IMG/VR virus record: IMGVR_UViG_2667527582_000006 | Reading direction: 5' to 3' (one strand) | Source: a virus | Taxonomy: Duplodnaviria; Heunggongvirae; Uroviricota; Caudoviricetes | DNA: 20,040 nt | Part shown: piece after piece, positions 7,429 to 20,040 of the stretch | Position numbering within the stretch: position 1 is the first letter of the stretch | How the letters are laid out: the number at the start of each line of letters is the position of its first letter | Translations under genes and position numbers: made by a program | Notes under the pieces: model-generated | The model's input: the letters and a program-made list of their open reading frames with translations, nothing else | Told to the model about the DNA's origin: nothing | Database searches by the model: none

Positions 7429-8499
7429 ATGGCTAACGCCTGGCTCAGATTATGGCATGACATGCCAAATGACCCTAAGTGGCGAACAATTGCCAGGGTG
7501 TCAGGGCAGCCAATTGCAACAGTGATGGCAGTGTATATCCACCTCCTGGTGAGCGCGTCACGAAATGTCACGCGAGGTCACATTGATGTCACGACAGAAG
7601 ATTTGGCAAGTGCGCTCGACGTGACAGAAGAGGTAATTGATTCAATTTTGCAGACGATGCAGGGGCGGGTACTTGATGGTGATTTAATCACTGGATGGGA
7701 AAAACGCCAGGTGCTGAAAGAGGACAACGGCAATATTTCGCAAACCGCAAAATCTCCGGCAGAGCGCAAGAGGGCGCAGCGAGAGAGGGAAAGAAAGCGG
7801 GAACAAAATGGCGATTGTCACGGCGCGTCACGAAATGTCACGCACATGTCACGACGAGTCACGACAGATAAAGATACAGATAAAGATACAGATCAAGAAG
7901 ATCAAAACACTATGGTCCATGGCGTAAAAAACGCCACGAACCAGGCAGGGGATGTTCAGACCGTCAATCCTGGTCAGCCAGCAGGCACGACACCGGAAGC
8001 CGATTCAGCGTATGCGCTGAAAGCCGATTCGGGCGCTGTGCAGCAGGTGATGACCCCAAGGCCGGAGCAATCACACCAACTGCAGCAGCCTGAAGCCGAT
8101 TCCGCCATTCAGCGGGAAGCCGATCGGGTAGTCCCGGAAAACACCGGGCTGTCTGTGGGACGAGTGGATTATCCGGATGTGTTCGAACAGGTCTGGCGGG
8201 AGTACCCGTTGCGTGCCGGAGCAAACCCGAAGAAATCCGCTTTCAGTGCCTGGAAGGCCAGATTACGCGAGGGGGTGCCACCAGAGGCCATGCTGGATGG
8301 CGTGAGGCGTTACGCAAGATACTTGGCGGCTACCGGGAAAACGGGAACGGAATTTGTTCAGCGAGCGACGACGTTTTTTGGACCGGACCGGAATTTTGAG
8401 AACCCCTGGTTGCTCCCGGTAAGCGGCACGAACAACCAGCGTTGTGTGAATCATATTTCTGAACCGGATACCGAAATTCCACCGGGCTTCAGGGGGTAA
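7429..8499 (+). CDS. Replication initiator, lambda O-like (replisome organiser N-terminus), containing the origin iterons
   Basis: N-terminus MANAWLRLWHDMPNDPKWRTIARVSGQPIATVMAVYIHLL typical of the phage replisome-organiser N-terminal domain; GAGGTGAG SD; internal iteron arrays. Confidence 0.75.
   Translation: MANAWLRLWHDMPNDPKWRTIARVSGQPIATVMAVYIHLLVSASRNVTRGHIDVTTEDLASALDVTEEVIDSILQTMQGRVLDGDLITGWEKRQVLKEDNGNISQTAKSPAERKRAQRERERKREQNGDCHGASRNVTHMSRRVTTDKDTDKDTDQEDQNTMVHGVKNATNQAGDVQTVNPGQPAGTTPEADSAYALKADSGAVQQVMTPRPEQSHQLQQPEADSAIQREADRVVPENTGLSVGRVDYPDVFEQVWREYPLRAGANPKKSAFSAWKARLREGVPPEAMLDGVRRYARYLAATGKTGTEFVQRATTFFGPDRNFENPWLLPVSGTNNQRCVNHISEPDTEIPPGFRG
7556..7593 (+). repeat. Iteron cluster 1: four GTCAC(G/A) repeats at 10-11 bp spacing
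   Basis: Copies at about 7557, 7567, 7577 and 7588; the 18-mer CGTCACGAAATGTCACGC recurs identically at 7826-7843. Confidence 0.6.
7817..7888 (+). repeat. Iteron cluster 2 (five GTCACG repeats at 10-11 bp spacing) followed by GATAAAGATACA x2 tandem repeat; candidate ori
   Basis: Copies at about 7817, 7827, 7837, 7848 and 7858, then GATAAAGATACAGATAAAGATACA and an A-rich stretch, all inside the O-like ORF. Confidence 0.6.
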
Positions 8500-8539
8500 G
8501 TGTTGATTTCTGGTCATGAGGTAATTTTCAGGAGGGCTT

Positions 8540-8962
8540 GTGGCAAAAGTTTTTACACAAGAAGAGCGAGAAAAAATTAAAGGGCAGGTTGTTGAACTCG
8601 TACGCCAGAGTGGGCGTGAGACGTTACGGCAACTGGAAGTCAAGACAGGTGCGACAAGATATCTGATGAGCGTTCTCGCAAGAGAGCTGGTTGCCAGCGG
8701 CGATGTATACAACTCCGGCTACGGGTTATTCCCCTCTGAACAGGCGCGTAAGGACTGGCAAAACGCCCGCAAAAAACTCTCGAGGGCAAAGGTGAAGAAA
8801 CCTGCTGTGGTTGATCCGGACCTTATCTGGTCATCACCTGACGGAGAAATACGTCGCTACGACAGTCGCCTAAACATAATCTGTCGCGAGTGCCGGAAGA
8901 GTGAAGCTATGCAGCGTGTACTGGCTTTCTATCAGGGTAATTTTCAGGAGGCGGTACTGTGA
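8540..8962 (+). CDS. Hypothetical protein (140 aa), replication-module position
   Basis: GTG start with AGGAGG 4 nt upstream; basic, possibly DNA-binding; no recognised motif. Confidence 0.5.
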   Translation: MAKVFTQEEREKIKGQVVELVRQSGRETLRQLEVKTGATRYLMSVLARELVASGDVYNSGYGLFPSEQARKDWQNARKKLSRAKVKKPAVVDPDLIWSSPDGEIRRYDSRLNIICRECRKSEAMQRVLAFYQGNFQEAVL

Positions 8963-9019
8963 GTGAAATTAGCTATCAGGCTTCAATTACCGCTGGCATT
9001 CGCATCAAAGGAGAGGAGC

Positions 9020-9376
9020 ATGGAAATAAAACCAGAGGATGAGTTAAGCAATATCGTTTTATTTCCGGTAAAAGAGGATGACCCTCGTAATCAGGTTAAT
9101 TTTCTTTATGAGCCATCGGAAAGACCATATTGTCATCACGCCTCTGTCCGGGTTGACGAAAAAGAGCGTCAGGTCCGCTGTAAAATCTGCGGTGCAGTTG
9201 TGGAGCCATTTGACTGGATGCTCTCTGTGGCGAAAAGAGAAACCAGACTGGCAGATGATGTAAGGCTCTTGCGTCAGGAGGAGCGGGAAAGGCGAAAAAA
9301 TATAGAAAAGCTAATTCAGATTGAGCGTAACGCGAAAGCGCGGATACGCAGGGCGACAAAATCCAGAACTGAATAA
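9020..9376 (+). CDS. Hypothetical protein (118 aa) with Cys/His cluster and basic coiled-coil-like C-terminus
   Basis: ATG at 9020 with AGGAGAGGAG SD; CHHASVRVDEKERQVRCKICG possible zinc-binding; the track ORF begins at an upstream GTG (8963). Confidence 0.5.
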   Translation: MEIKPEDELSNIVLFPVKEDDPRNQVNFLYEPSERPYCHHASVRVDEKERQVRCKICGAVVEPFDWMLSVAKRETRLADDVRLLRQEERERRKNIEKLIQIERNAKARIRRATKSRTE

Positions 9377-9469
9377 TTAAATTTAGCTCTGTTAAAAATT
9401 TAATCCTTAACCGGAGGGATTTCTGCACCCTCAGAACATCAGGAGGCCGCCCGAAAGGGCGGTAGTTAA

Positions 9470-9652
9470 ATGCGAAAGTTTAAAATAATTATTGAAACGG
9501 GAATAGCCGGTGGAGATTTCGAGGATGAATTCGAAGTGGATGATGATGCGACGCCTGATGAAATACATGACGAAGCAAAAGATATTTTCTTTAACTACTG
9601 CAATTACTCATATCACGAAATAAAAGACGAAGAGGAAGAACAAAATGGCTGA
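9470..9652 (+). CDS. Small highly acidic protein (60 aa)
   Basis: MRKFKIIIETGIAGGDFEDEFEVDDDATPDEIHDE...; SD AGGAGG separated from the ATG by a GNRA-loop hairpin. Confidence 0.45.
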   Translation: MRKFKIIIETGIAGGDFEDEFEVDDDATPDEIHDEAKDIFFNYCNYSYHEIKDEEEEQNG

Positions 9653-9821
9653 TTTTGGTTCAACTAAATACAACGTCAGTTTTGAAGAATGGCATGAACT
9701 GTTAATGGACTATGCAGAGTTACGTGGTGGCAGTGCTGCTGATGCTGAAGCATGGCGTGATGATTATGAAGCAGGAAAAACTCCGGTCGAAGCATATTGT
9801 GATGAGTGGGGCGATGAATGA
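9645..9821 (+). CDS. Small acidic protein (58 aa), not in the ORF track
   Basis: Manual translation MADFGSTKYNVSFEEWHELLMDYAELRGGSAADAEAWRDDYEAGKTPVEAYCDEWGDE; GAGGAAGAA SD; start overlaps the upstream stop and its stop overlaps the next ATG (ATGA). Confidence 0.4.
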   Translation: MADFGSTKYNVSFEEWHELLMDYAELRGGSAADAEAWRDDYEAGKTPVEAYCDEWGDE

Positions 9822-10134
9822 GCGAGGTTAATTATCAGGAAGGGCATGAAACGGCGGGGCAAGCAAAAACAGTGGCATGGCGATATCGCTACGTGAAAAA
9901 AAAGGCGTTACGGACTTTCAGGGGAAGTAGTGGTCTGGTGACTGGAAATATGTACCGAAAAAAGAGGATTGTAACGACAGGCCGAACTATGAAATTCAGG
10001 CCTTATTCACTGCCCCGCCAGTCCCGGTTACATCAGAAGAACTGGTTAAAGCTGTGCACTTTTATGAACAACTAAAACGCGAAAATCCACCAGCATCCGG
10101 AAACCTGATTACAGATTCCCAGATAAGGCAATGA
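9818..10134 (+). pseudogene. Hypothetical gene with apparent frame disruption: ATG frame 9818-10075 and a more protein-like -1 frame from 9931 to 10134
   Basis: Annotated frame after the A8 tract (9896-9903) is K/R-rich and junk-like; the -1 frame encodes ...DWKYVPKKEDCNDRPNYEIQALFTAPPVPVTSEELVKAVHFYEQLKRENPPASGNLITDSQIRQ but has no start codon. Confidence 0.3.
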
Positions 10135-10304
10135 GCTACCTGGCGCAGAACGGGCTGATAAGTATGGGGAATGTTTTACGATGAATATTTAGACTAAAGA
10201 GTTTGTAACGCTATGTAAGTGATTTTTTCTGGTTTAGATATTTATATGTCCGGCCAAATTGAGGTGTGTTTAAATGTAATTGCACATTGATTGTAGGAGG
10301 AATA

Positions 10305-10484
10305 ATGAAAAACGCATTGCAGTTTTTGTTTGTTGCGTTCTGGTTGTTCGTATCATGTATGCCCATCATCTTCACAGCAAGGTATATGGAAAAAGTTGAT
10401 GTTTTGATATTAATATTTGGATATATAAATGCCCTTTTTTTAGGGGTGTTCATGGCGGTCATGTGCATTGAATACTGGCGGTAA
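10305..10484 (+). CDS. Small hydrophobic membrane protein (59 aa, two predicted TM segments) in an AT-rich moron
   Basis: MKNALQFLFVAFWLFVSCMPIIF...LILIFGYINALFLGVFMAVMCIEYWR; strong AGGAGG SD; AT-rich surroundings. Confidence 0.5.
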   Translation: MKNALQFLFVAFWLFVSCMPIIFTARYMEKVDVLILIFGYINALFLGVFMAVMCIEYWR

Positions 10485-10629
10485 ATACAGCGAACGCCAT
10501 TGGTTTAGTTGGATATTTACTGTGCCGGACAAAAACGGTTTGCGGGGAAATCTTAGTTAAGTAGAATGACTGCGGGTGCTTGAGGCTATCTGTCTCAGGC
10601 ATGAACACCAAAAGGCAGATAGAGAAAAG

Positions 10630-10693
10630 CCCCAGTTAACATTACGCGTCCTGCAAGACGCTTAACATTAATCTGAGGCCATATCTATGCGAC
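10630..10693 (-). ncRNA. Putative Sok-like antisense RNA of the hok locus (extent approximate)
   Basis: Minus-strand promoter-like TTGACC (10729-10724), 18-nt spacer, TAATCT (10705-10700); the transcript would be antisense to the leader-ORF start region, as in hok/sok. Confidence 0.3.
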
Positions 10694-10746
10694 ACATAGA
10701 GATTAGCCTCTTACGGACCGAAAGGTCAAGGAGAAGCAGGCTATGA
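10687..10746 (+). CDS. Putative mok-like leader ORF (19 codons), translationally coupled to hok
   Basis: ATG at 10687; stop TGA overlaps the hok ATG (cuAUGA). Confidence 0.3.
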   Translation: MRHIEISLLRTERSRRSRL

Positions 10747-10898
10747 AGCAGCAAAAGGCGATGTTAATCGCCCTGATCGTCATCTGTTTAACCGTCATAG
10801 TGACGGCACTGGTAACGAGGAAAGACCTCTGCGAGGTACGAATCCGAACCGGCCAGACGGAGGTCGCTGTCTTCACAGCTTACGAACCTGAGGAGTAA
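10743..10898 (+). CDS. hokD: Hok-family type I toxin (HokD/RelF-like, 51 aa)
   Basis: MKQQKAMLIALIVICLTVIVTALVTRKDLCEVRIRTGQTEVAVFTAYEPEE: single TM helix and conserved Hok periplasmic tail with Cys. Confidence 0.85.
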   Translation: MKQQKAMLIALIVICLTVIVTALVTRKDLCEVRIRTGQTEVAVFTAYEPEE

Positions 10899-10966
10899 GA
10901 GACCTGGCGGGGGAGAAATCCCTCGCCACCTCTGATGTGTCAGGCATCCTCAACGCACCCGCACGT

Positions 10967-10993
10967 AACCCGCTTCGGCGGGTTTTGTTTTTT
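10967..10993 (+). terminator. Rho-independent terminator of the hok transcript
   Basis: CCCGC-TTCG-GCGGG hairpin followed by TTTTGTTTTTT. Confidence 0.7.
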
Positions 10994-11065
10994 CCTGGCA
11001 TTCTGGTTTACAATTCGCACGCCAGCCTGAACAACTGGCACCTGCTGCGCCAGCAGAGACAACCG

Positions 11066-11344
11066 ATGGCGCACGATACCAAATTACACAATTCTAATGA
11101 TTCTGCCGTCTTTGCCAGTAGGTGCGGACGGCGTTTTCACGCATTCAAATCAGACTGGTTCCAGCATCCTCCATGCACTGAAGAGCAGGCGGAATGGATA
11201 ATTCAGTGTTACCGCAGGCGCGGATACGAGGTTAAGAAAGCTCTTAGCCTCGACTACCGTCACTGGATAATCTCAGTCAGACTCCCTTACTCCGAACGCC
11301 CACCGCGTTCATCCCGCACATACCAGCAACGGATCTGGAGGTAA
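11066..11344 (+). CDS. Hypothetical small protein (rem-like position between hok and ydfU)
   Basis: ORF in frame with track ORF 10937..11344; the first ATG downstream of the hok terminator is at 11066; stop abuts the ydfU-like start. Confidence 0.45.
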   Translation: MAHDTKLHNSNDSAVFASRCGRRFHAFKSDWFQHPPCTEEQAEWIIQCYRRRGYEVKKALSLDYRHWIISVRLPYSERPPRSSRTYQQRIWR

Positions 11345-12469: not shown

Positions 12470-12481
12470 AATTCATATCAA

Positions 12482-12506
12482 CGGACCTCCACGGAGGTCC
12501 GTTTTT
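12482..12506 (+). terminator. Rho-independent terminator-like hairpin just right of the gap
   Basis: CGGACCTCC / GGAGGTCCG perfect inverted repeat followed by TTTTT. Confidence 0.6.
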
Positions 12507-12665
12507 GCATTCTAAGCCCGCCAAAACCAACATTCCTACAATCCCTTAACTCCACCCAACTCAATCAACTTCAACCCGCATCAAGTCCCTTGCGAGGGTA
12601 CAACTGAGGGTATAGTCTGATTCGATAAAATTTATACCCCTTTTTACTATCAGGAGATACCGCCA

Positions 12666-13928
12666 ATGGCGCTCACTGACGCTAAAATCCGTGCCGCTAA
12701 ACCGGATGAAAAACCTTATAAACTTGCCGACAGCGGCAACATGTTCTTGCTCGTTCACCCTAACGGCTCTCGCTACTGGCGGCTCCGCTATCGGTTTCTG
12801 GGCAAAGAGAAAACGCTCGCTCTGGGGGTCTATCCTGAAGTCTCGTTATCAGAAGCAAGGGAAAAACGCGATACGGCGAGAAAGCTGATAGCTGAGGGAA
12901 CTGACCCATGCGAACAGAAAAGGATCAAAAAGTCGGTACCCGAAACAGCTCAGACATTTGAAGGCATCGCAAGACAGTGGCATAAGAGCAACAAAAAATG
13001 GTCAGCCTCACACAATGAGAGGATACTGAAAAGCCTCGAAACTCATGTTTTCCCCTTTATTGGTTCACGTGACATTACCACCCTCAGGACTCCCGATTTA
13101 CTTGTTCCCGTTAAAGCAGCCGAAGCAAAGGAGATATATGAAATCGCAGCGCGCCTTCAGCAGCGTATCACTGCAATCATGCGCTATGCTGCCCAGTCAG
13201 GCATTATCACCTATAACCCTGCCTTGGATATGGCTGGCGCGTTAACCACAGTGAAACGCCAGCACCGCCCTGCCCTCGCCTTAAATCGCATTTCAGAGCT
13301 TCTTGAACGACTGGATGCCTACAGAGGACAACCTCTCACCCGGCAGGCAACTAAACTCACCCTGCTTATCTTCATCCGTTCCAGCGAACTACGCTTTGCC
13401 AGGTGGTCTGAGATCGACTTCAAGAAAGCCATGTGGACCATTCCTCCTGAGCGGAAACCTATTGAAGGGGTCAAGTATTCCCATCGTGGCTCAAAAATGC
13501 GAACAGAGCATCTTGTGCCACTATCTACTCAGGCGGTGAATATACTGAAGCAGATCCACACTATCAGCGGAGAACATGAACTGATTTTCACCGGCGATCA
13601 CAATCCATGGAAACCCATGAGTGAGAACACTGTAAATAACGCACTGCGTCTGATGGGCTATGATACAAAGGTCGATGTCTGTGGTCACGGCTTCCGGGCA
13701 ATGGCCTGTAGTTCGTTGATTGAGTCAGGTCTTTGGTCCAGAGATGCGGTAGAACGGCAGATGAGCCATATGGAACGCAATTCGGTGAGGGCGGCGTATA
13801 TTCATAAAGCGGAACATCTGGATGAGCGCAAGCTGATGTTGCAGTGGTGGGCTGATTTTCTGGATGCCAATCGGGAAAGGGGAATTACGCCGTTTGACTA
13901 TGCGAAGATCAACCGGGGTAATATGTAG
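12666..13928 (+). CDS. P4-type (CP4-like) tyrosine integrase
   Basis: 420 aa; N-terminal MALTDAKIRAAKPDEKPYKLADSGNMFLLVHPNGSRYWRLRYRF arm-binding signature; C-terminal HGFRAM...RAAY catalytic motifs; AGGAGA SD. Confidence 0.85.
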   Translation: MALTDAKIRAAKPDEKPYKLADSGNMFLLVHPNGSRYWRLRYRFLGKEKTLALGVYPEVSLSEAREKRDTARKLIAEGTDPCEQKRIKKSVPETAQTFEGIARQWHKSNKKWSASHNERILKSLETHVFPFIGSRDITTLRTPDLLVPVKAAEAKEIYEIAARLQQRITAIMRYAAQSGIITYNPALDMAGALTTVKRQHRPALALNRISELLERLDAYRGQPLTRQATKLTLLIFIRSSELRFARWSEIDFKKAMWTIPPERKPIEGVKYSHRGSKMRTEHLVPLSTQAVNILKQIHTISGEHELIFTGDHNPWKPMSENTVNNALRLMGYDTKVDVCGHGFRAMACSSLIESGLWSRDAVERQMSHMERNSVRAAYIHKAEHLDERKLMLQWWADFLDANRERGITPFDYAKINRGNM

Positions 13929-13946
13929 CATATGTGTTTAAATATA

Positions 13947-13988
13947 TTAGCTCAGATTTGATCTGACACAGCTCTGGCACAGAGCTAA
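13947..13988. repeat. Nested palindromic element downstream of the integrase
   Basis: TTAGCTC...GAGCTAA outer arms enclosing TCAGAT-ttg-ATCTGA and AGCTCTG-gca-CAGAGCT. Confidence 0.4.
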
Positions 13989-14095
13989 ACCTAATCTGCA
14001 GGCAGCTCTGTTCCATAGGCGGAAGTTTATCTTTGTAGCCTAGATGCCAGTTAGGAAGAAAATAGAGACAGGAAAGATGATGACTAAATCAGTCT

Positions 14096-14118
14096 CCCAC
14101 CCGCACTGTGCGGGTGGG
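14096..14118. repeat. GC-rich hairpin (9-bp stem CCCACCCGC / GCGGGTGGG), possible terminator in the convergent intergenic region
   Basis: Perfect inverted repeat with 5-nt loop; lies between the convergent integrase and MTase genes. Confidence 0.35.
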
Positions 14119-14458
14119 ATATGTCTTTCCGAGAGAATACCGGCGGCAGCGAGCATCGTTAATTTTAGCTACAAAAGCTGTCCGGAGATGGCGGGTCAAG
14201 ATCAGTCGGAAGATCTCTAAAAGTGGATGGGCCGTTTTGCTGGGATTCTTAGATTGGCAAAAAAGTGGTGAAGCCATCAGATAGGAAGTGGATGGCGCAG
14301 TATTCAGTCTAACACTGAGGAATATTGTGATAATGAAAAGGCTACATATGTAGTGATGTGATTTACTCCCATAGCAAACGCAAACTGTGGCAGTATTACA
14401 TTGGCTGCTTCAGGAAAGGGGGCATCACATCACGACATTTTCTTCCACTGCAGGGTCA

Positions 14459-15775
14459 TTAGCCTGCTGTTCGCTCCAGACCCTGGTTCTTACCAGCCAG
14501 TATTTCGGCTTTTTTCATAGTTTCGACCAACTGTTCCGAGACAGCACGGATGACATTCATGCAGACAGAGTTGCCAAATTGCTTGTAGATCTGGCCCTGT
14601 GAAACAGCATCGACGATGTAGTCGTCAGGGAATCCCTGTAGACGTGCACATTCGCGCGGAGTTAGCTTGCGTGGGTTCCTACCCAAATGTGACTGGTCAA
14701 TCAGGATTTCGGAGCCGTCCTTGTAATAACGTGCACTGATGGTATTAGTGTATTCGCTGTCCTTGTTGAAAAGAGAATAGCCGAAACCGTTACCTTTCTT
14801 TTCGTGTTCCAGTTTCCGTTTCTGGTGGCCTATCCACAGTCTATCCGAGATGGTATATCTGTCTTGTGATAGAGGCAGACGATCGAGGTCTTCCAGAATG
14901 TCACCAACACGGGTCGGAGTCATAGGAGGTACCGGCCATCTGAATACACTGTCGAAATCCACGCCCCTATAATAGTCACGGTCAAAACCAACGATGAAAA
15001 TACGTTCACGGTTCTGGGGGGCACCGAAGTCACCTGCACGCAGTACACGGTAATCAACCCAGTAATTGAGTTTTTCGGACAGAGCATTGCGGGCATCCTC
15101 ACTAATCGGGATATCGTCCGGAACGGAATGGGTTCCATTGCCCCGCAGGATATCGAGAATGGTTTTCAGGGTACGACCCTTATCATGTCCCTGCAGTTGC
15201 TTGACATTTTCCAACATGAATGCCTTTGGACGCTTGGCTGTCATTATCCGCTGAATTTCGAAGAACATGGTTCCACGGGTATCGCTGAAACCTTTTTTCA
15301 AACCGGCCTGTGAAAAAGCCTGGCATGGAAATCCGCCAAGCAGTACATCGTGATCAGGAATGTCGGATGCCGGAATTCTAGTGATGTCACCTTGGGGCAT
15401 TTCGCCGAAATTCGTTAGATAGGTCTTCTGGGAGAACTTGTCCCATTCGGATGAGAATACACAGTGCCCTCCCTGCTGCTGATAAGGAAGACGAATACCT
15501 CCGATACCAGCAAACAGATCGATGAAGGTGAAATTGCATTCATTTTCAGGCTTCTGGCGGAAAGGTGCGTTTTCCAGATATTCAGTCATCTTCTTTTCCA
15601 CATCGAGAATGGCCTGCCATTTGGCGGAAGACGGTTCATGTTCCTCTTCTTCCCATCCTCGGACTGTACGTTCTCCGGTGGCACCGAGTCCGAGAAGATT
15701 GGCAAATTCGGTGCGACCTATGCCTAATTTTTTTCTCATATTTTTGATATATTGGAATTTATTCTTACTGTCCAT
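14459..15775 (-). CDS. DNA (cytosine-5)-methyltransferase, Dcm/EcoRII/SsoII family, with N-terminal HTH regulatory extension
   Basis: Motif I FIDLFAGIGG, motif IV GGFPCQAFS, ENV, QNRERIFIVG, TISARYYKDGSEILID, TPRECARLQGFPDDY; N-terminal GIGRTEFANLLGLGATGERTVRGWEEEE HTH-like segment. Confidence 0.9.
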   Translation of the reverse strand: MDSKNKFQYIKNMRKKLGIGRTEFANLLGLGATGERTVRGWEEEEHEPSSAKWQAILDVEKKMTEYLENAPFRQKPENECNFTFIDLFAGIGGIRLPYQQQGGHCVFSSEWDKFSQKTYLTNFGEMPQGDITRIPASDIPDHDVLLGGFPCQAFSQAGLKKGFSDTRGTMFFEIQRIMTAKRPKAFMLENVKQLQGHDKGRTLKTILDILRGNGTHSVPDDIPISEDARNALSEKLNYWVDYRVLRAGDFGAPQNRERIFIVGFDRDYYRGVDFDSVFRWPVPPMTPTRVGDILEDLDRLPLSQDRYTISDRLWIGHQKRKLEHEKKGNGFGYSLFNKDSEYTNTISARYYKDGSEILIDQSHLGRNPRKLTPRECARLQGFPDDYIVDAVSQGQIYKQFGNSVCMNVIRAVSEQLVETMKKAEILAGKNQGLERTAG

Positions 15776-15887
15776 CCCATGCTCACCTTATCCGGTTTTA
15801 TTCCCGGCGATAGTATCACTGTACGGATGATCAATCAATGAGGGGGTCTCATGTCTATCGACATTTCTGGGCATAGTCCGAATCTTT

Positions 15888-17162
15888 TCAGACTGTAAAA
15901 ATTTCGCGGGTCAGTTCTACCAGCTTTTCTCCTGTTGAATACAGCCGAAGTAGTTCTAGGGGATCCTGGTAATGGCAATGAATCGGCGGATATTCGGACA
16001 GACAGTCAGCTTCTGTAACCAGAACCTTTCCCCTTTCCGCAACATGGACAGCCCTGAGTGGCTTTTCTGTTCCAGGAAAAATGAAATGGTTTGTGATGTG
16101 GGTACCGACCGGCACTAGGTAAGAAAGCGCCTTCTGGTAGAAAAACTGTTTTACCAGATCCGGCCAACCAGGAGCACTATCCGGTGTCTTCGCATCATAG
16201 TATTTGGCATCTATGATCGCGACGTGCGTTTTTTCTGCATTGTGGAGAACCGTATCCGTTCTCTGGCTCTTGTTGGCAACGGGAACAAACCTGTCACTGC
16301 CGGCCCGATACACGGGAATAGGCAATTTATTGTTAACTCGGTATTTACCCACCAAGCATTCATCCAGCATGGCTTCCCACAGACTGTGAAACTTCCTGAC
16401 ACCGATAAGAACCCCGCCATTCCGCATTCCTCTCCCTGTTTCAAGATACATGATCAGTCTCCGCAAAAGGAAAATATCCCTTTCGGAATAGCTGAACTGC
16501 AGTTCTCTTCTTAGGTGTACAACCCATGAGAAAACATTTCCCTCAGGACGCGGAACATTCTGCAGTCGTTCAGGAGTGCCCTGACTGCCTGTCCAGAGCA
16601 TTCCGTATACCGGATAGAGCTCCCTCATTACAGAGGCATGAATCTTTGCTGTCTCGCTATCGGTGAGGTAGCGCGAACGTGTGGTTACAGGATCGATATA
16701 TACAGGCCCAGATGGGCTAGTATAGGCAGTCCCTCGGGCAATTGTCTCCGGCCATACAACTTTTCCGGAGTTGGTTGTATCGACTCTAATCCGGCGGACA
16801 TAGAGACCATTCGTCTGATAGTCGTCAATCAGTGCAGTTGCCAACGACAGGGATTCACCACCGATAAGTCCGGTTCCTGCATCCCCATCAAAAACACCGG
16901 TGTCTCTATCTCGGTAGAATTTCAGGAGTGAGCGGAGCAGATAATGTGCTGAAAGAGCCTGCGATTCACGAGAAGAACTGTTATTTCGTGGCAGAAATAC
17001 AGCCAGACCTCCACTGAAAGACATGACTCCACAGAAATGGATTTTCTGCATGTCGGGGGCCAGCAGCCCCCTGTTTCTCAGCTCATCGAGCACGGTCGCA
17101 GGAATACTGCGATCGGTGACAGGTGTCCTGTCTGAAAGATACAGAATATCAGCTGGCAACAT
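15888..17162 (-). CDS. McrC-like PD-(D/E)xK nuclease subunit
   Basis: 424 aa; C-terminal HVAIIDAKYY matching the (D/E)xK catalytic core; start overlaps the upstream AAA+ gene by 14 nt. Confidence 0.7.
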   Translation of the reverse strand: MLPADILYLSDRTPVTDRSIPATVLDELRNRGLLAPDMQKIHFCGVMSFSGGLAVFLPRNNSSSRESQALSAHYLLRSLLKFYRDRDTGVFDGDAGTGLIGGESLSLATALIDDYQTNGLYVRRIRVDTTNSGKVVWPETIARGTAYTSPSGPVYIDPVTTRSRYLTDSETAKIHASVMRELYPVYGMLWTGSQGTPERLQNVPRPEGNVFSWVVHLRRELQFSYSERDIFLLRRLIMYLETGRGMRNGGVLIGVRKFHSLWEAMLDECLVGKYRVNNKLPIPVYRAGSDRFVPVANKSQRTDTVLHNAEKTHVAIIDAKYYDAKTPDSAPGWPDLVKQFFYQKALSYLVPVGTHITNHFIFPGTEKPLRAVHVAERGKVLVTEADCLSEYPPIHCHYQDPLELLRLYSTGEKLVELTREIFTV

Positions 17163-19089
17163 CTTGCGGATCCCTGTTCATGTCAACAGGAGTGCCCACC
17201 CCTTCAAGTCTGTTCTCTACGGCAGTGGAGAAAACAGCCATGTCATTGCGAAATGCTGCAGATAGGTTGCCGAACGTTCTGAAGGTAGACGCAAATATTT
17301 TCTGGTGTCCGACATGTCTCAGCACATCATCCCACAAATAGATGAACAGTTTTCCGCCAAGGGCAGCTTTCGCTGCTTCCCTATTTTCCAGTTCTTTAGA
17401 ATCTAGGAAAAACGGGCCGATCAGACGATCCTCTGCTATTTCACATTCGACAAGGGTGTCATTAATAATTTGAGCAAAATCGCGCCAGAGTACCGAATAT
17501 TTTCCTGAATTGGTGGTGAAAACGATTTCGGTTTGTGGGATCTCCGGTTTTGATAAATCGATTGGTAGATATTCGAAATTCCAGCGCCGTTTGAATGCAG
17601 TATCCAGCGGCATAACTGCCTGATCACTGCTGTTCATGGTAGCCAGTAGAGACATATTGGACGGGATCCGTAAGCTATCGACAGGAGTACATCCCATAGT
17701 ACCTAGTTCCGTATTTATATACTCGATCATATCCGGATCAGTGGCATTGATGCTGTAGGTACTCGTTCCATCAGGCTCCCTGTCTAGAAGCTGGAAAAGC
17801 TCGCCGAAGACAGCTGCAGCAGAAGCACGGTTGATTTCTTCGATAATGAGACAGACCTTTCTGTCTGGACGAGCAATGGCCAGTATGAGTGCGCAGGTAA
17901 AGGGGCCTGGTCTGAAACTGTAGGTTATGCTGCTTTCTCCCTGTTCATTCTTTTCCATTTTAGGCTTCAGGGCACCGACAAAATCGTTATGCTGAGTATC
18001 AGGATGGAAAACTGTGACAATCTTTTCTGCACCGTCACTCATTTCACCATGGACCCTGTAGCTTTTTCCCGTACCGGGTGCCCCATAGAAGATTCTGTTC
18101 GTTCCACCGGTCACTCTAGGTCCGGATACGGAGGCTCTGGTCGATGACTCGAAAAAGAACTTGCCCTCTCTGTTCCGGATACTCATCCCCAGCCATAAAC
18201 CGGAAACCAGAACCGATATTTTTTCAAGTGAATCGGGAGTATCCAAGAGACCCTTTCTGATGAAAATATATTTCTCCAGCGGAACAGAAAAATGGACGGG
18301 ATTCTGGACATACAGCGCATTGCCGGGTTCCCTGGATGGGCGGAGAAGAAATGCCCTGTCTATATCATTCCATGAAACAAATTCGGCATCGGGGTCAGTC
18401 CCCAGTAAAGGCTCAAACTGACCGGACCAGCCAATGGTTGTCATTATTCTGAACAGCAGTTCATCCCCATCAGGAACACTGAACATATAAGGAAGACTGG
18501 GCATATATCTCCTTTGAAGGTAATCATATGTTTCTTGAGAACGCACCAGATCAAGAATCAGGGTACCGAGTGTTTCCGAGCTTACATTCGGGACCGGCAA
18601 TGATGCCAGCAAGACCGATTTGACAAAATCATCGGATTGCCTATAACTCTTTTTCCCAGTTTTTGAGCTCGTGTTTATTAGATTTTTTGCCTCAAGTCTT
18701 GTTCTGGGATCTTTGAAAGCCCAGAAAAAGTTACTGCGGCTGTAGATGTCCAGCGAAACGAGCGCCTGCTCGTTTGACGTTCCGCTTTCGATCATTGCTT
18801 CGAATTCTGCCGGAAACATATTTTTTTTGATTTCTTCGAATACAGAGATGTAGTTGTCCAGTAGTCTTACAAATGGCCCAATCTTTAGCATATACATCAG
18901 ATACTGGCATGGTATATAACAGTGATACCCGCTTCCAGTTTTCATCCGTGCTGTATGGTCCAGCAATGTCAGTCCGGTTGTTGATAGAACCGTTCTTGTT
19001 TCATCATCGAATCCGATCTCATCGAATTGCCATGCCGATTCAGGTTCATTTTTGAACCAGTTCATCACCATATCCAGTTCTGAAAGCAT
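17149..19089 (-). CDS. McrB-like AAA+ (AAA_5) NTPase with about 330-aa uncharacterised N-terminal domain
   Basis: Walker A GAPGTGKS; Walker B/McrB signature LIIEEINRASAAAVFGELFQLLDR; NxxD-like MNSSD; N-terminal 330 aa without recognisable motif. Confidence 0.75.
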   Translation of the reverse strand: MLSELDMVMNWFKNEPESAWQFDEIGFDDETRTVLSTTGLTLLDHTARMKTGSGYHCYIPCQYLMYMLKIGPFVRLLDNYISVFEEIKKNMFPAEFEAMIESGTSNEQALVSLDIYSRSNFFWAFKDPRTRLEAKNLINTSSKTGKKSYRQSDDFVKSVLLASLPVPNVSSETLGTLILDLVRSQETYDYLQRRYMPSLPYMFSVPDGDELLFRIMTTIGWSGQFEPLLGTDPDAEFVSWNDIDRAFLLRPSREPGNALYVQNPVHFSVPLEKYIFIRKGLLDTPDSLEKISVLVSGLWLGMSIRNREGKFFFESSTRASVSGPRVTGGTNRIFYGAPGTGKSYRVHGEMSDGAEKIVTVFHPDTQHNDFVGALKPKMEKNEQGESSITYSFRPGPFTCALILAIARPDRKVCLIIEEINRASAAAVFGELFQLLDREPDGTSTYSINATDPDMIEYINTELGTMGCTPVDSLRIPSNMSLLATMNSSDQAVMPLDTAFKRRWNFEYLPIDLSKPEIPQTEIVFTTNSGKYSVLWRDFAQIINDTLVECEIAEDRLIGPFFLDSKELENREAAKAALGGKLFIYLWDDVLRHVGHQKIFASTFRTFGNLSAAFRNDMAVFSTAVENRLEGVGTPVDMNRDPQDVAS

Positions 19090-19116
19090 ACTTGTCCCGT
19101 CCTTGCATGAGAAAAA

Positions 19117-20040
19117 TTAGTCATACTTGATCCAGAGATTTCTGGATATTGTCTGTCGCATGTTTTCAATAAATTTCTTGTTCTGGTCCGAAAACTGAGA
19201 GTTTTCATACTGCCCCATAAAAAACAGCAATTCGGCCAGTGCACAGCCCTGGTCTTTCGCCTGATTTTTCATCACGGGATGTTCAGTATTGATGGTAATG
19301 AAATGATCGTCCCCGTAACCAGGTTCCCACAATGAACCGTCGGCTGTTTTACCGAAACGAATATCGATGTCGTCAGGAGCAGTCATCATTACCCTAAATC
19401 TAGGCAGATTGCCGCTTTTTCCAGAAAACAGGAGCCTAAATTCGAGTAGGGCATTGAATATGATAGCCAAGGCATCACTGAAACCTGAACGGTAAATATT
19501 ATAACGGTCGGCAATGATATTACCGAACATGTCAGTATTGTCCTGCCCGATGGTGTCACATCCCTGAATGTTGTTCACCAGATCCTTTACCGGACTCGGC
19601 ATGAATAGACGGGCATACTTTTTCCCTTGGTGAGCAAGCGATTTTGCGATCCTATCACCGGAAAACCTGAACTCTGAAAGGCCCAGAAGCTCCGCGATTT
19701 CATATATCATACGGACAATTCTGCAATTTTCAGGCAGATGTTCATCCACCCACGTGGACAGTGCTGGTATTTCCGCTTTAAGCTTGTCGGTTGGAAGATT
19801 TGTCACTTCCAGCCCGAAGGTACTCTCGAATGACTCTTTTTCGCTGAAAACGGCAGCGCTTGCTGCTACCTGATAAACAAAATCTGCAATTATCAGATCT
19901 GATTCATCGAATATTCGATTGAACAGGTCAATCGGCAACGGAATCCTGTTCTGCCAGAAAATCAGTCCATCTACCCTGTAACTGTGGTTTTTGTCGTAAA
20001 GGTAACGTTTGAAATCGGCCAGATCGTATTCATAATTCAT
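19117..20040 (-). CDS. Hypothetical protein (307 aa), first gene of the McrBC-like/MTase cluster
   Basis: ORF begins with ATG exactly at the window edge and ends 27 nt upstream of the McrB-like start; no motif recognised. Confidence 0.5.
   Translation of the reverse strand: MNYEYDLADFKRYLYDKNHSYRVDGLIFWQNRIPLPIDLFNRIFDESDLIIADFVYQVAASAAVFSEKESFESTFGLEVTNLPTDKLKAEIPALSTWVDEHLPENCRIVRMIYEIAELLGLSEFRFSGDRIAKSLAHQGKKYARLFMPSPVKDLVNNIQGCDTIGQDNTDMFGNIIADRYNIYRSGFSDALAIIFNALLEFRLLFSGKSGNLPRFRVMMTAPDDIDIRFGKTADGSLWEPGYGDDHFITINTEHPVMKNQAKDQGCALAELLFFMGQYENSQFSDQNKKFIENMRQTISRNLWIKYD

Follow-up and report, generated by a model that had tools for sequence, protein, structure and literature searches.

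Two Overlapping Genes for Small, Strongly Acidic Proteins in the Probable Early Region of an Escherichia coli Lambdoid Prophage

Two small, strongly acidic proteins of 60 and 58 aa, here termed ORF1 and ORF2, are encoded by adjacent, overlapping genes in an E. coli lambdoid prophage (IMG/VR record IMGVR_UViG_2667527582_000006). Both genes, which are very common in E. coli, are already catalogued (DUF7167, phrog_519, PGAP) and belong, as ordinary members, to uncharacterised families. Their layout, conservation and predicted structures are described here for the window, that is, the whole 20,040-nt stretch of DNA that was analysed. As to function, the reading that we favour, tentatively and at somewhat less than an even chance, is that both proteins are stoichiometric, host-directed decoys that inhibit a host protein whose normal ligand is DNA or some other polyanion. 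ORF1 and ORF2 resemble no known DNA mimic, and an anti-restriction or DNA-mimic role is a guess.

Genomic setting of the gene pair

The window derives from a lambdoid (Qin/Rac-like) prophage of E. coli. The earlier note had placed two adjacent ORFs of 60 and 58 aa at 9470-9821, and these coordinates proved exact. Together with the surrounding signals and a third, decayed gene, they form the following cassette.

9441-9446, + strand: Shine-Dalgarno-like hexamer AGGAGG, read from the sequence, 23 nt 5' of the ORF1 ATG
9447-9462, + strand: GC-rich hairpin CCGCCC-GAAA-GGGCGG, between the AGGAGG hexamer and the ORF1 start
9470-9652, + strand: ORF1, 60 aa, DUF7167 family protein, identical to WP_001224662.1
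9632-9636, + strand: GAGGA Shine-Dalgarno of ORF2, in the codons of the Glu-rich tail of ORF1, 8 nt 5' of the ORF2 ATG
9645-9821, + strand: ORF2, 58 aa, acidic, Trp-rich, predicted three-helix-bundle protein, identical to WP_000753060.1
9818-10075, + strand: ORF3, decayed third gene of the cassette, a 'frameshifted; internal stop' pseudogene in the PGAP annotation of the identical locus

Many E. coli chromosomes match bases 9300-9900 at 100% identity. This segment has a match in 2588 of the 5426 complete E. coli genomes, with a query coverage of at least 80% in 1695, and the ORF1-ORF2 pair is present in about one third of complete E. coli genomes. In public data, more than 1000 contigs carry the exact ORF1 protein, and the same holds for the exact ORF2 protein (more than 1000).

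Upstream of the pair, and in the same direction, lie cro, ydaT, a replication gene and DUF977; for LygF, the label given to this DUF977 neighbour, the literature search returned unrelated matches and no relevant paper. A consensus scan of the + strand from 8400 to 10900 found neither a promoter nor a terminator. The three ORFs therefore probably share a rightward transcript with cro, ydaT, the replication gene and DUF977, and the cassette is probably part of the rightward early operon, downstream of the replication genes. In the Stx phage ArgO145, Ead/Ea22-like genes surround the same cassette, which lies close to the left genome end, a position that we take to be the early left arm. The genes that flank the cassette in the window and in ArgO145 encode a Zn-ribbon protein and Ead/Ea22-like proteins, and no nucleases.

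The window also carries restriction-type genes, beside which the earlier note had found a possible anti-defence role of the pair notable. These genes lie downstream of a second integrase gene.

12666-13928: second integrase, at the start of an island that begins at about 12470
14459-15775: C5 methylase, downstream of the second integrase
15888-17162: LlaJI-type endonuclease, downstream of the second integrase
17149-19089: McrB-like AAA protein, downstream of the second integrase

The C5-methylase/LlaJI/McrB-like restriction system (14459-19089) is thus part of an integrase-borne element that starts at about 12470 and lies outside the prophage. With the exception of the integrase, this island was not found in complete E. 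coli genomes, and the ORF1-ORF2 pair, 100% identical, also occurs in a genome whose prophage has no downstream island. Because the restriction genes sit on a separate island and the pair is found without it, their co-location is uninformative on the function of the pair.

Composition and evidence for coding

The strong acidity that had been noticed from the letters alone is borne out by the composition of both proteins. ORF1 has 20 D+E against 5 K+R (net charge -15, 33% acidic, pI 4.05) and contains the acidic stretches FEDEFEVDDDATPDEIHDE and EEEEQ, and ORF2 has 16 D+E against 4 K+R (net charge -12, 28% acidic, pI 4.05). Among the 106 window ORFs of at least 50 aa, for which the mean acidic fraction is 0.07 (sd 0.055), ORF1 is the most acidic and ORF2 comes next.

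The ORF track on which the earlier note was based lacks ORF2, probably because a protein of 58 aa falls below the 60-aa default of the ORF tool, and ORF2 is nevertheless real, as that note had held. At the identical locus in NZ_CP025913, PGAP annotates ORF1 as 'DUF7167 family protein' (WP_001224662.1) and ORF2 as 'hypothetical protein' (WP_000753060.1). Compared with diverged copies, ORF1 has a pairwise dN/dS of 0.06-0.10, and most values for ORF2, that of the IncI2 plasmid copy (dS 0.69) included, lie in the range 0.09-0.18; the single ORF2 outlier of 0.34 comes from a comparison with only five differences, and two pairs yield no ratio, having either zero synonymous or zero non-synonymous changes. 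At the protein level, conservation extends to homologs of 40-60% identity in phages and plasmids that are unrelated. Given the PGAP annotation and dN/dS values of 0.06-0.18, both ORFs are genuine genes under strong purifying selection. Decayed copies also exist. Premature stops are found in the cryptic-prophage copies of 606R7 (ORF2), PhiR42_1 (both genes) and Rac 442/2 (ORF1), and the protein collection holds many truncated or frameshifted alleles. The premature stops in cryptic prophages suggest that the genes serve the element and are of no benefit to the lysogen itself.

Gene junctions and the ORF1 leader

The TGA stop of ORF1 lies within ATGGCTGA (9645-9652), an 8-nt overlap with the start of ORF2. 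Judged by the sequence, this overlap and the GAGGA embedded in ORF1 have the anatomy of translational coupling, and the coupled layout proposed earlier thus stands at that level. In 10 of the 12 genomic contexts of DUF7167, those of Enterococcus phages included, the Shine-Dalgarno of the next gene likewise sits in the codons of the acidic tail, so that dual coding accounts for at least part of the EEEEQ run of ORF1. The ATGGCTGA junction also links ORF2-like genes to other upstream genes in IncI2 and Klebsiella plasmids; in IncI2, the gene joined to the ORF2-like gene by this same overlap is DUF1187.

The junction of ORF2 with ORF3 is an ATGA overlap (9818-9821). The reading frame of ORF3 breaks at a run of eight A residues (9896-9903), and its similarity to the intact Ead/Ea22-like gp13, which follows the pair in ArgO145, is limited to the first approximately seven codons.

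The AGGAGG hexamer upstream of ORF1 is unchanged in ArgO145 despite the differing DNA further upstream, and it is kept in four diverged copies. The hairpin that separates it from ORF1 is found in the minimum-free-energy RNA structure of 9425-9490 (-18.6 kcal/mol, z = -2.87). If folded, the hairpin would place AGGAGG approximately 7 nt from the ORF1 ATG, and the arrangement is possibly a split ribosome-binding site. Among the changes seen in its stem, one is disrupting, one preserves pairing as G-U and none form compensatory pairs, and no Rfam family covers the leader hairpin. Two other identities were rejected: a terminator, since no T-run follows the stem, and a lambda boxB-like nut site, since the loop is a GAAA tetraloop and that of boxB has five bases.

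Two protein families with separate distributions

ORF1 matches Pfam PF23768 (DUF7167) over its full length (profile positions 1-60 of 60) with 55.1 bits against a cut-off of 24.4, and it also matches phrog_1997 (E=9e-31). All 12 of its aligned relatives match the Pfam family as well. Within DUF7167 and phrog_1997 it is a typical member without differences. The conserved core of the family reads MRK..v.IET...EV.D.AT.EEI..EA+D.F..yC and has an acidic tail behind it. Members carry net charges of -11 to -16, and 14 alignment columns are at least 80% D/E. The literature search found no paper on DUF7167 or on DUF1187. Carriers of DUF7167 include E. coli lambdoid and Stx phages and a temperate Klebsiella phage, in which the gene lies past replication gene P, at a place that corresponds to the nin position of lambda. 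In virulent Klebsiella Guernseyvirinae it overlaps the start of the gene for a 454-aa exonuclease, and in Enterococcus Herelleviridae (Kochikohdavirus), at 42% identity, it overlaps the end of an 'exonuclease' gene. In metagenomic contigs it adjoins DNA polymerase A, Dam and SNF2 helicases. Relatives recognised by structure are found in phAPEC8 and Lactococcus phage 949.

ORF2 matches phrog_519 (E=4.5e-23), with only positions 76-137 of the 143 in the profile covered, and neither it nor its family matches any Pfam entry. The signature of this phrog_519-type family is F.EWH...GGSAADAEAWR.DYEAGKTP..AW.DEWG, its members carry net charges of -6 to -15, and in 7 columns of its alignment D/E make up at least 80%. 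Among phages, 198 records contain homologs, and the majority of these are phages of Salmonella, Klebsiella and Escherichia. The phage matches listed are dominated by Ackermannviridae of approximately 157 kb (Det7, Ag3 and 0507-KN2-1, with Kuttervirus too) and also include the T7-like phiKDA1 and Lastavirus ZX1. The position of the ORF2-like gene varies: it comes just after the capsid gene cluster in Ackermannviridae, between the DNA polymerase and the 5'-3' exonuclease in phiKDA1, after RecT or after YqaJ-SSB in some contigs, and immediately after gene A in Salmonella P2-like prophages, a slot that in P2 itself is occupied by Orf91. Homologs are also present on 554 plasmids, of which 516 are conjugative. 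Most of these are IncI2 plasmids (88% identity), and IncT and other large conjugative plasmids are represented as well. In IncI2, the operon comprises a CaiF/GrlA-like regulator, DUF1187, the ORF2-like gene, SPFH and NfeD, and it lies next to repA and upstream of the type IV secretion genes.

The exhaustive search returned approximately 100 clusters (50% identity) with the ORF2 domain, nearly all of them stand-alone proteins of 47-75 aa; its profile included the 181-aa P0194, whose tail contributed approximately 120 extra positions, and the usable matches are the approximately 100 at positions 1-60, two top matches being confined to the tail. Fusions of the ORF2 module are uninformative, one being with GemA and the others without a Pfam domain. 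A concatenated profile found no natural ORF1-ORF2 fusions, and those that look like fusions are artefacts of frameshifts or of annotation. ORF1 is found unaccompanied by ORF2 in Klebsiella and Enterococcus phages. Conversely, Ackermannviridae, T7-like, Lastavirus and P2-like phages and the 554 plasmids carry ORF2 with no ORF1. Pairing of the two is limited to one E. coli lambdoid cassette. Since the families occur apart in most carriers, they are two independent, mobile modules.

A previous study lists Kuttervirus members of phrog_519 as anti-CRISPR candidates by PaCRISPR and AcRanker, as a prediction only (bioRxiv 10.1101/2022.06.14.493971), and no further mention of phrog_519 was found in the published literature. 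A check for Aca-type neighbours found no helix-turn-helix gene beside the pair or the ORF2-like gene in the window, ArgO145 or IncI2, where the neighbours are the Zn-ribbon protein, the Ead/Ea22-like remnant and DUF1187. In Lastavirus ZX1, a gene annotated 'DNA-binding protein' comes after the ORF2-like gene.

Predicted structures and searches

AlphaFold2 models built from the family alignments are confident for both proteins. The ORF1 model (pLDDT 81.4) comprises two strands (2-9 and 16-23), one helix (29-43) and an acidic tail of low confidence, and the protein is thus predicted to be a beta-hairpin with an amphipathic helix and a disordered acidic tail. On the helix, D30, D34 and D38 lie on one side and I32, A36, I39, F40 and Y43 form an opposite, hydrophobic side, with E31 and E35 between them. 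The ORF2 model (pLDDT 87) consists of helices 13-26, 34-42 and 47-55. The conserved positions that are mostly aromatic or hydrophobic (F4, F21, F40, Y46 and Y48 in ORF1; F13, W16, W37, Y41, Y51 and W55 in ORF2) look like core residues. The conserved Asp/Glu columns include E9, E22, D24-26, E31, D34, E35 and D38 in ORF1 and D33, E35, D39, D40, E42 and D53 in ORF2. Each protein is predicted to be one compact domain of approximately 45 ordered residues, and the models display no enzyme-like or DNA-binding features. The picture is that of a small, stable scaffold that presents carboxylates, and acidity is a family trait in both cases.

Both proteins have the strong negative charge and the conserved Asp/Glu residues by which the mimic class is recognised. 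The comparison with Ocr- and ArdA-like mimics that had been suggested for the pair came back empty. The Ocr model matches neither protein at E<=0.1 and none of 42 family members at E<=1, and ArdA gave neither a sequence match nor a fold match. Neither model shares a fold with Ocr (an elongated, all-helical dimer), ArdA (three-domain, elongated) or another mimic. A search of PDB sequences with both family profiles returned nothing below E=0.1, and no match to either protein was found in the NCBIfam and PADLOC scans, in the anti-defence catalogue or among the toxin models in Pfam, NCBIfam and PADLOC.

A host-directed decoy and its alternatives

In the reading that we favour, each protein would act stoichiometrically soon after the element enters or is induced, and its conserved, carboxylate-rich surface would capture and inhibit a host protein that has DNA or some other polyanion as its normal ligand. 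The target may be a nuclease or defence protein, such as a restriction enzyme or a RecBCD-type enzyme, or a nucleoid protein. Such an action would resemble that of a small DNA mimic or decoy and would fall outside any known mimic family. The two proteins would probably have different targets, and a complex between them would not be required. The carriers rely on unrelated replication systems, namely those of lambda O/P type, P2 gpA, a T7-like DNA polymerase, the large virulent Ackermannviridae and IncI2 RepA, and a partner that is shared among them is therefore more likely to be host-encoded. The decoy reading is also consistent with the early-operon placement, with a conserved acidity comparable to that of Ocr and with the decay of the genes in cryptic prophages. 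It is likewise consistent with the recurring exonuclease, RecT, SSB and helicase neighbours, a niche in which lambda Gam and T7 gp5.9 are also encoded. Against it stand the searches described above, which found no known DNA mimic or anti-defence protein that is similar in sequence or fold, the place of the ORF2-like gene behind the capsid genes in Ackermannviridae, the approximately 45 ordered residues of the models, which would be small for a mimic of duplex DNA unless the proteins are oligomeric, and the acidity of the ORF1 tail, which is partly explained by the dual coding of the next gene's Shine-Dalgarno. Plasmid anti-restriction genes are usually found in the leading region, and the IncI2 position of the ORF2-like gene does not look like one. 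The more specific proposition that one or both families counter host defences by mimicking DNA or a polyanion, with folds that are new and with carriers among temperate phages, large virulent phages and conjugative plasmids, is doubtful.

The same neighbourhoods can be read in another way, namely that the proteins are accessory factors (small subunits or regulators) of the element's own replication or recombination enzymes and are not host-directed. This is argued for by the overlap of DUF7167 with exonuclease genes in Klebsiella Guernseyvirinae and Enterococcus Kochikohdavirus, by its SNF2 helicase, DNA polymerase A and Dam neighbours in metagenomic contigs, by the ORF2-family genes that follow RecT, YqaJ-SSB or P2 gpA or are flanked by polymerase and 5'-3' exonuclease in phiKDA1, and by the location of both genes after the replication module in the window. 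However, adjacency is weak evidence because small genes generally pile up in early modules; the neighbouring enzymes are non-homologous between carriers (PD-(D/E)XK, a 166-aa exonuclease, RecT, gpA, RepA), and the Zn-ribbon and Ead/Ea22-like flanks in the window and ArgO145 are not nucleases, so that we regard this explanation as rather doubtful. Where the earlier note had thought of Ocr/ArdA-type anti-restriction mimics, tied to the restriction-modification genes of the window, the acidity comparable to that of Ocr, the early operon location, the frequency of the ORF2 family on conjugative plasmids and the presence of the C5-methylase/LlaJI/McrB-like system at 14459-19089 would all be in keeping with the idea. 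It is nonetheless improbable, as the proteins have no sequence or fold similarity to Ocr or ArdA, the restriction system is borne on its separate integrase element and the identical pair occurs elsewhere without that island. Moreover, a prophage gene is not expected to counter a system of its own host, where the DNA is already modified, and the known targets of Ocr and ArdA are Type I and BREX-type enzymes, not LlaJI/McrBC-like ones.

About equally improbable is a role as modulators of host physiology or of the lysis-lysogeny decision through a regulatory host protein, in the manner of the exo-xis and nin ORFs of lambda and Stx phages. The pair occupies the same niches (nin-like here, and in the left arm with Ead/Ea22-like genes in ArgO145), and the third cassette gene is Ead/Ea22-like; in lambda and Stx phages, Ea22 is reported to shift the balance from the lytic towards the lysogenic state (PMC10834534). 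Lambda, however, has no homolog of either family, and the families are also present on plasmids and in strictly virulent Ackermannviridae, T7-like phages and Herelleviridae, for which there is no lysogeny decision to influence. Finally, the ORFs could be chance ORFs, functionless remnants or a toxin-antitoxin pair, which is hardly credible. Some cryptic-prophage copies do carry premature stops, many alleles are truncated or frameshifted, and two small overlapping genes superficially resemble a toxin-antitoxin locus; yet strong purifying selection, conservation across phage families and plasmids and confident models speak against an absence of function, and the acidity of both proteins and the separation of the families in most carriers speak against a toxin and its antitoxin. 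The chance-ORF and toxin-antitoxin readings were rejected on the grounds of dN/dS, conservation, the lack of a toxin match and the lack of obligate co-occurrence.

Implications

If either protein inhibits a host nuclease or defence system, it would represent an anti-defence module that is very small and has a new fold, and if the mimic reading is true, a single acidic domain of 55-60 residues would suffice to neutralise a conserved host nuclease or defence sensor. Such an inhibitor would already be widespread, since approximately one in three complete E. coli genomes and hundreds of conjugative IncI2 plasmids would encode it. IncI2 plasmids, of approximately 60 kb, often carry mcr-1. Phages under consideration for therapeutic use (Kuttervirus and phages of Klebsiella and Enterococcus) would encode it too, and it would thus bear on phage host range and on plasmid spread. 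In practical terms, the analysis provides two well-defined and cheaply testable candidates, of 60 and 58 aa, for anti-defence and host-takeover screens, together with homolog sets and confident models. The ORF2 family is the more attractive candidate because it spans phages and IncI2 plasmids and is still without a Pfam entry.

Comparison with known systems

The slots that the pair occupies in lambdoid phages are those of the small ORFs of the lambda exo-xis and nin regions (orf60a, orf61, orf63, Ea8.5 and NinD/E/F/H), which have similar lengths and overlapping starts and stops and are mostly uncharacterised. This likeness does not extend to homology, which was rejected: profile searches of lambda from 22 to 46 kb found no homolog of either family, the best E-value being above 1. 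The paper on the exo-xis region of Phi24B does not cover the ORF1 and ORF2 genes.

ORF1 and ORF2 share with T7 Ocr (gp0.3) and ArdA a small size, a composition of approximately 30% acidic residues, a location on mobile elements and, probably, early expression. ArdA has approximately 165 aa. In contrast to these proteins, ORF1 and ORF2 are at most half as large, have no similarity to them in sequence or fold, and are encoded by genes that are not at the leading end of a genome or plasmid. The Ocr monomer of 116 aa contains 34 acidic residues (PMC3439906), and in DMP12 the carboxylates superimpose on the phosphate backbone of DNA (PMC3643605).

A further group of known proteins is similar in scale and in context. 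Very small acidic inhibitors of nucleases or glycosylases, namely T7 gp5.9, lambda Gam, phi29 p56 and PBS2 Ugi, are encoded beside replication or exonuclease genes. With these inhibitors, ORF1 and ORF2 share the size class (52-138 aa), the acidity and, for both families in several phages, the niche beside exonuclease, annealase or polymerase genes.

Translation Signals Within the DUF7167 Acidic Tail
ORF1 belongs to the DUF7167 family, and in most contexts the acidic C-terminal tail of this family also carries a signal for the gene that follows. When the tail of ORF1 (window 9620-9652) was compared with the corresponding regions of loci L002, L004, L009, L010, L012, L023, and L026, 10 of 12 contexts had the downstream gene's Shine-Dalgarno sequence within the codons of the acidic tail (GAG GAx). 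Enterococcus phages also show this arrangement. Because the next gene's ribosome-binding signal sits in these codons, the acidity of the DUF7167 tail is partly a dual-coding constraint.

Flanks of the Cassette and Loci Downstream
The features that surround the ORF1-ORF2 cassette in the window are as follows.

8963-9376, gene upstream of ORF1, encoding a basic protein (pI 9.4; phrog_1621, weak zinc-ribbon match)
9818-10134, ORF3, a decayed gene; in an identical locus PGAP marks both a frameshift and an internal stop
10574-10745, Sok RNA match (Rfam RF01794, 106.7 bits)
10743-10898, HokD-like ORF of 51 aa
10967-10984, terminator-like hairpin after the hok/sok locus
~12470-20040, separate integrase-borne island inserted after a DUF968 gene
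12666-13928, P4-type integrase of the island

For the upstream gene, PGAP selects an internal ATG as the start, giving a product of 118 aa; in the Stx phage ArgO145, which has the same cassette, unrelated genes take its place. At the other end, ORF3 agrees with the N-terminal end of gp13, an intact Ead/Ea22-like protein of ArgO145, over its first ~7 codons; the two then diverge, and the reading frame of ORF3 is broken at an A8 run (9896-9903).

Further downstream, positions 10574-10988 hold a hok/sok type I toxin-antitoxin locus, which is also followed by a sub-threshold isrK-like match. In addition to its integrase, the island encodes a C5 cytosine methylase, an LlaJI-type endonuclease, an McrB-like AAA_5 protein, and an unassigned 307-aa ORF. 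The integrase part is the only portion found in complete E. coli genomes (99% identity), and the restriction-modification cargo of the island is therefore rare there.

Decayed Copies and Database Records
Several cryptic-prophage copies of the ORF1-ORF2 pair (loci L019, L020, and L021) are pseudogenes, and their deposited annotations call short fragments or other frames. In 606R7, W37 of ORF2 is replaced by a stop; PhiR42_1 has stops in both genes, while ORF1 of Rac 442/2 combines an ATG to ATA change with a stop.

Two phage records carry host labels that look doubtful. PP818812.1, labelled "Actinobacillus phage vB_Apl-pPE4," contains E. coli-lambdoid DNA with ~95% identity to the window, and the ORF2 homolog of OR844942.1, labelled "Enterococcus phage Efm 3-10," has a score exactly equal to that of Kuttervirus phage homologs.

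ORF2-like Genes in Plasmids and P2-like Prophages
On IncI2 plasmids, an ORF2-like gene lies in a conserved operon adjoining repA (8294-11148 of the locus from NZ_CP043196), in the order CaiF/GrlA-like regulator, DUF1187, ORF2-like gene, SPFH-domain protein, and NfeD. The DUF1187/ORF2-like junction is a ATGGCTGA overlap, the same as in the prophage, and databases hold frameshift-fused DUF1187+ORF2 proteins (P0148, P0150).

In Salmonella P2-like prophages an ORF2-like gene directly follows replication gene A, a slot that P2 itself fills with Orf91 (DUF3850), ahead of tin and old (loci L032 and L033, 5001-5189; L035, 6317-6646). L033 also has an nSTAND/AAA gene, which looks like a defence gene, ~0.7 kb downstream of the ORF2-like gene and ahead of the portal gene.

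A Possible Split Ribosome-Binding Site
The ORF1 leader (window 9441-9472) contains two elements.

AGGAGG, 23 nt upstream of the ORF1 ATG
GC hairpin (6-bp stem, GAAA loop), between AGGAGG and the ATG

If folded, the hairpin would reduce the effective spacing to ~7 nt, and the leader is a possible split ribosome-binding site. In sequence comparisons, the leader is identical in ArgO145 despite differing DNA further upstream and near-identical across four diverged copies; no compensatory changes in the hairpin were seen among these. A similar arrangement has been described for T4 genes 38 and 25.
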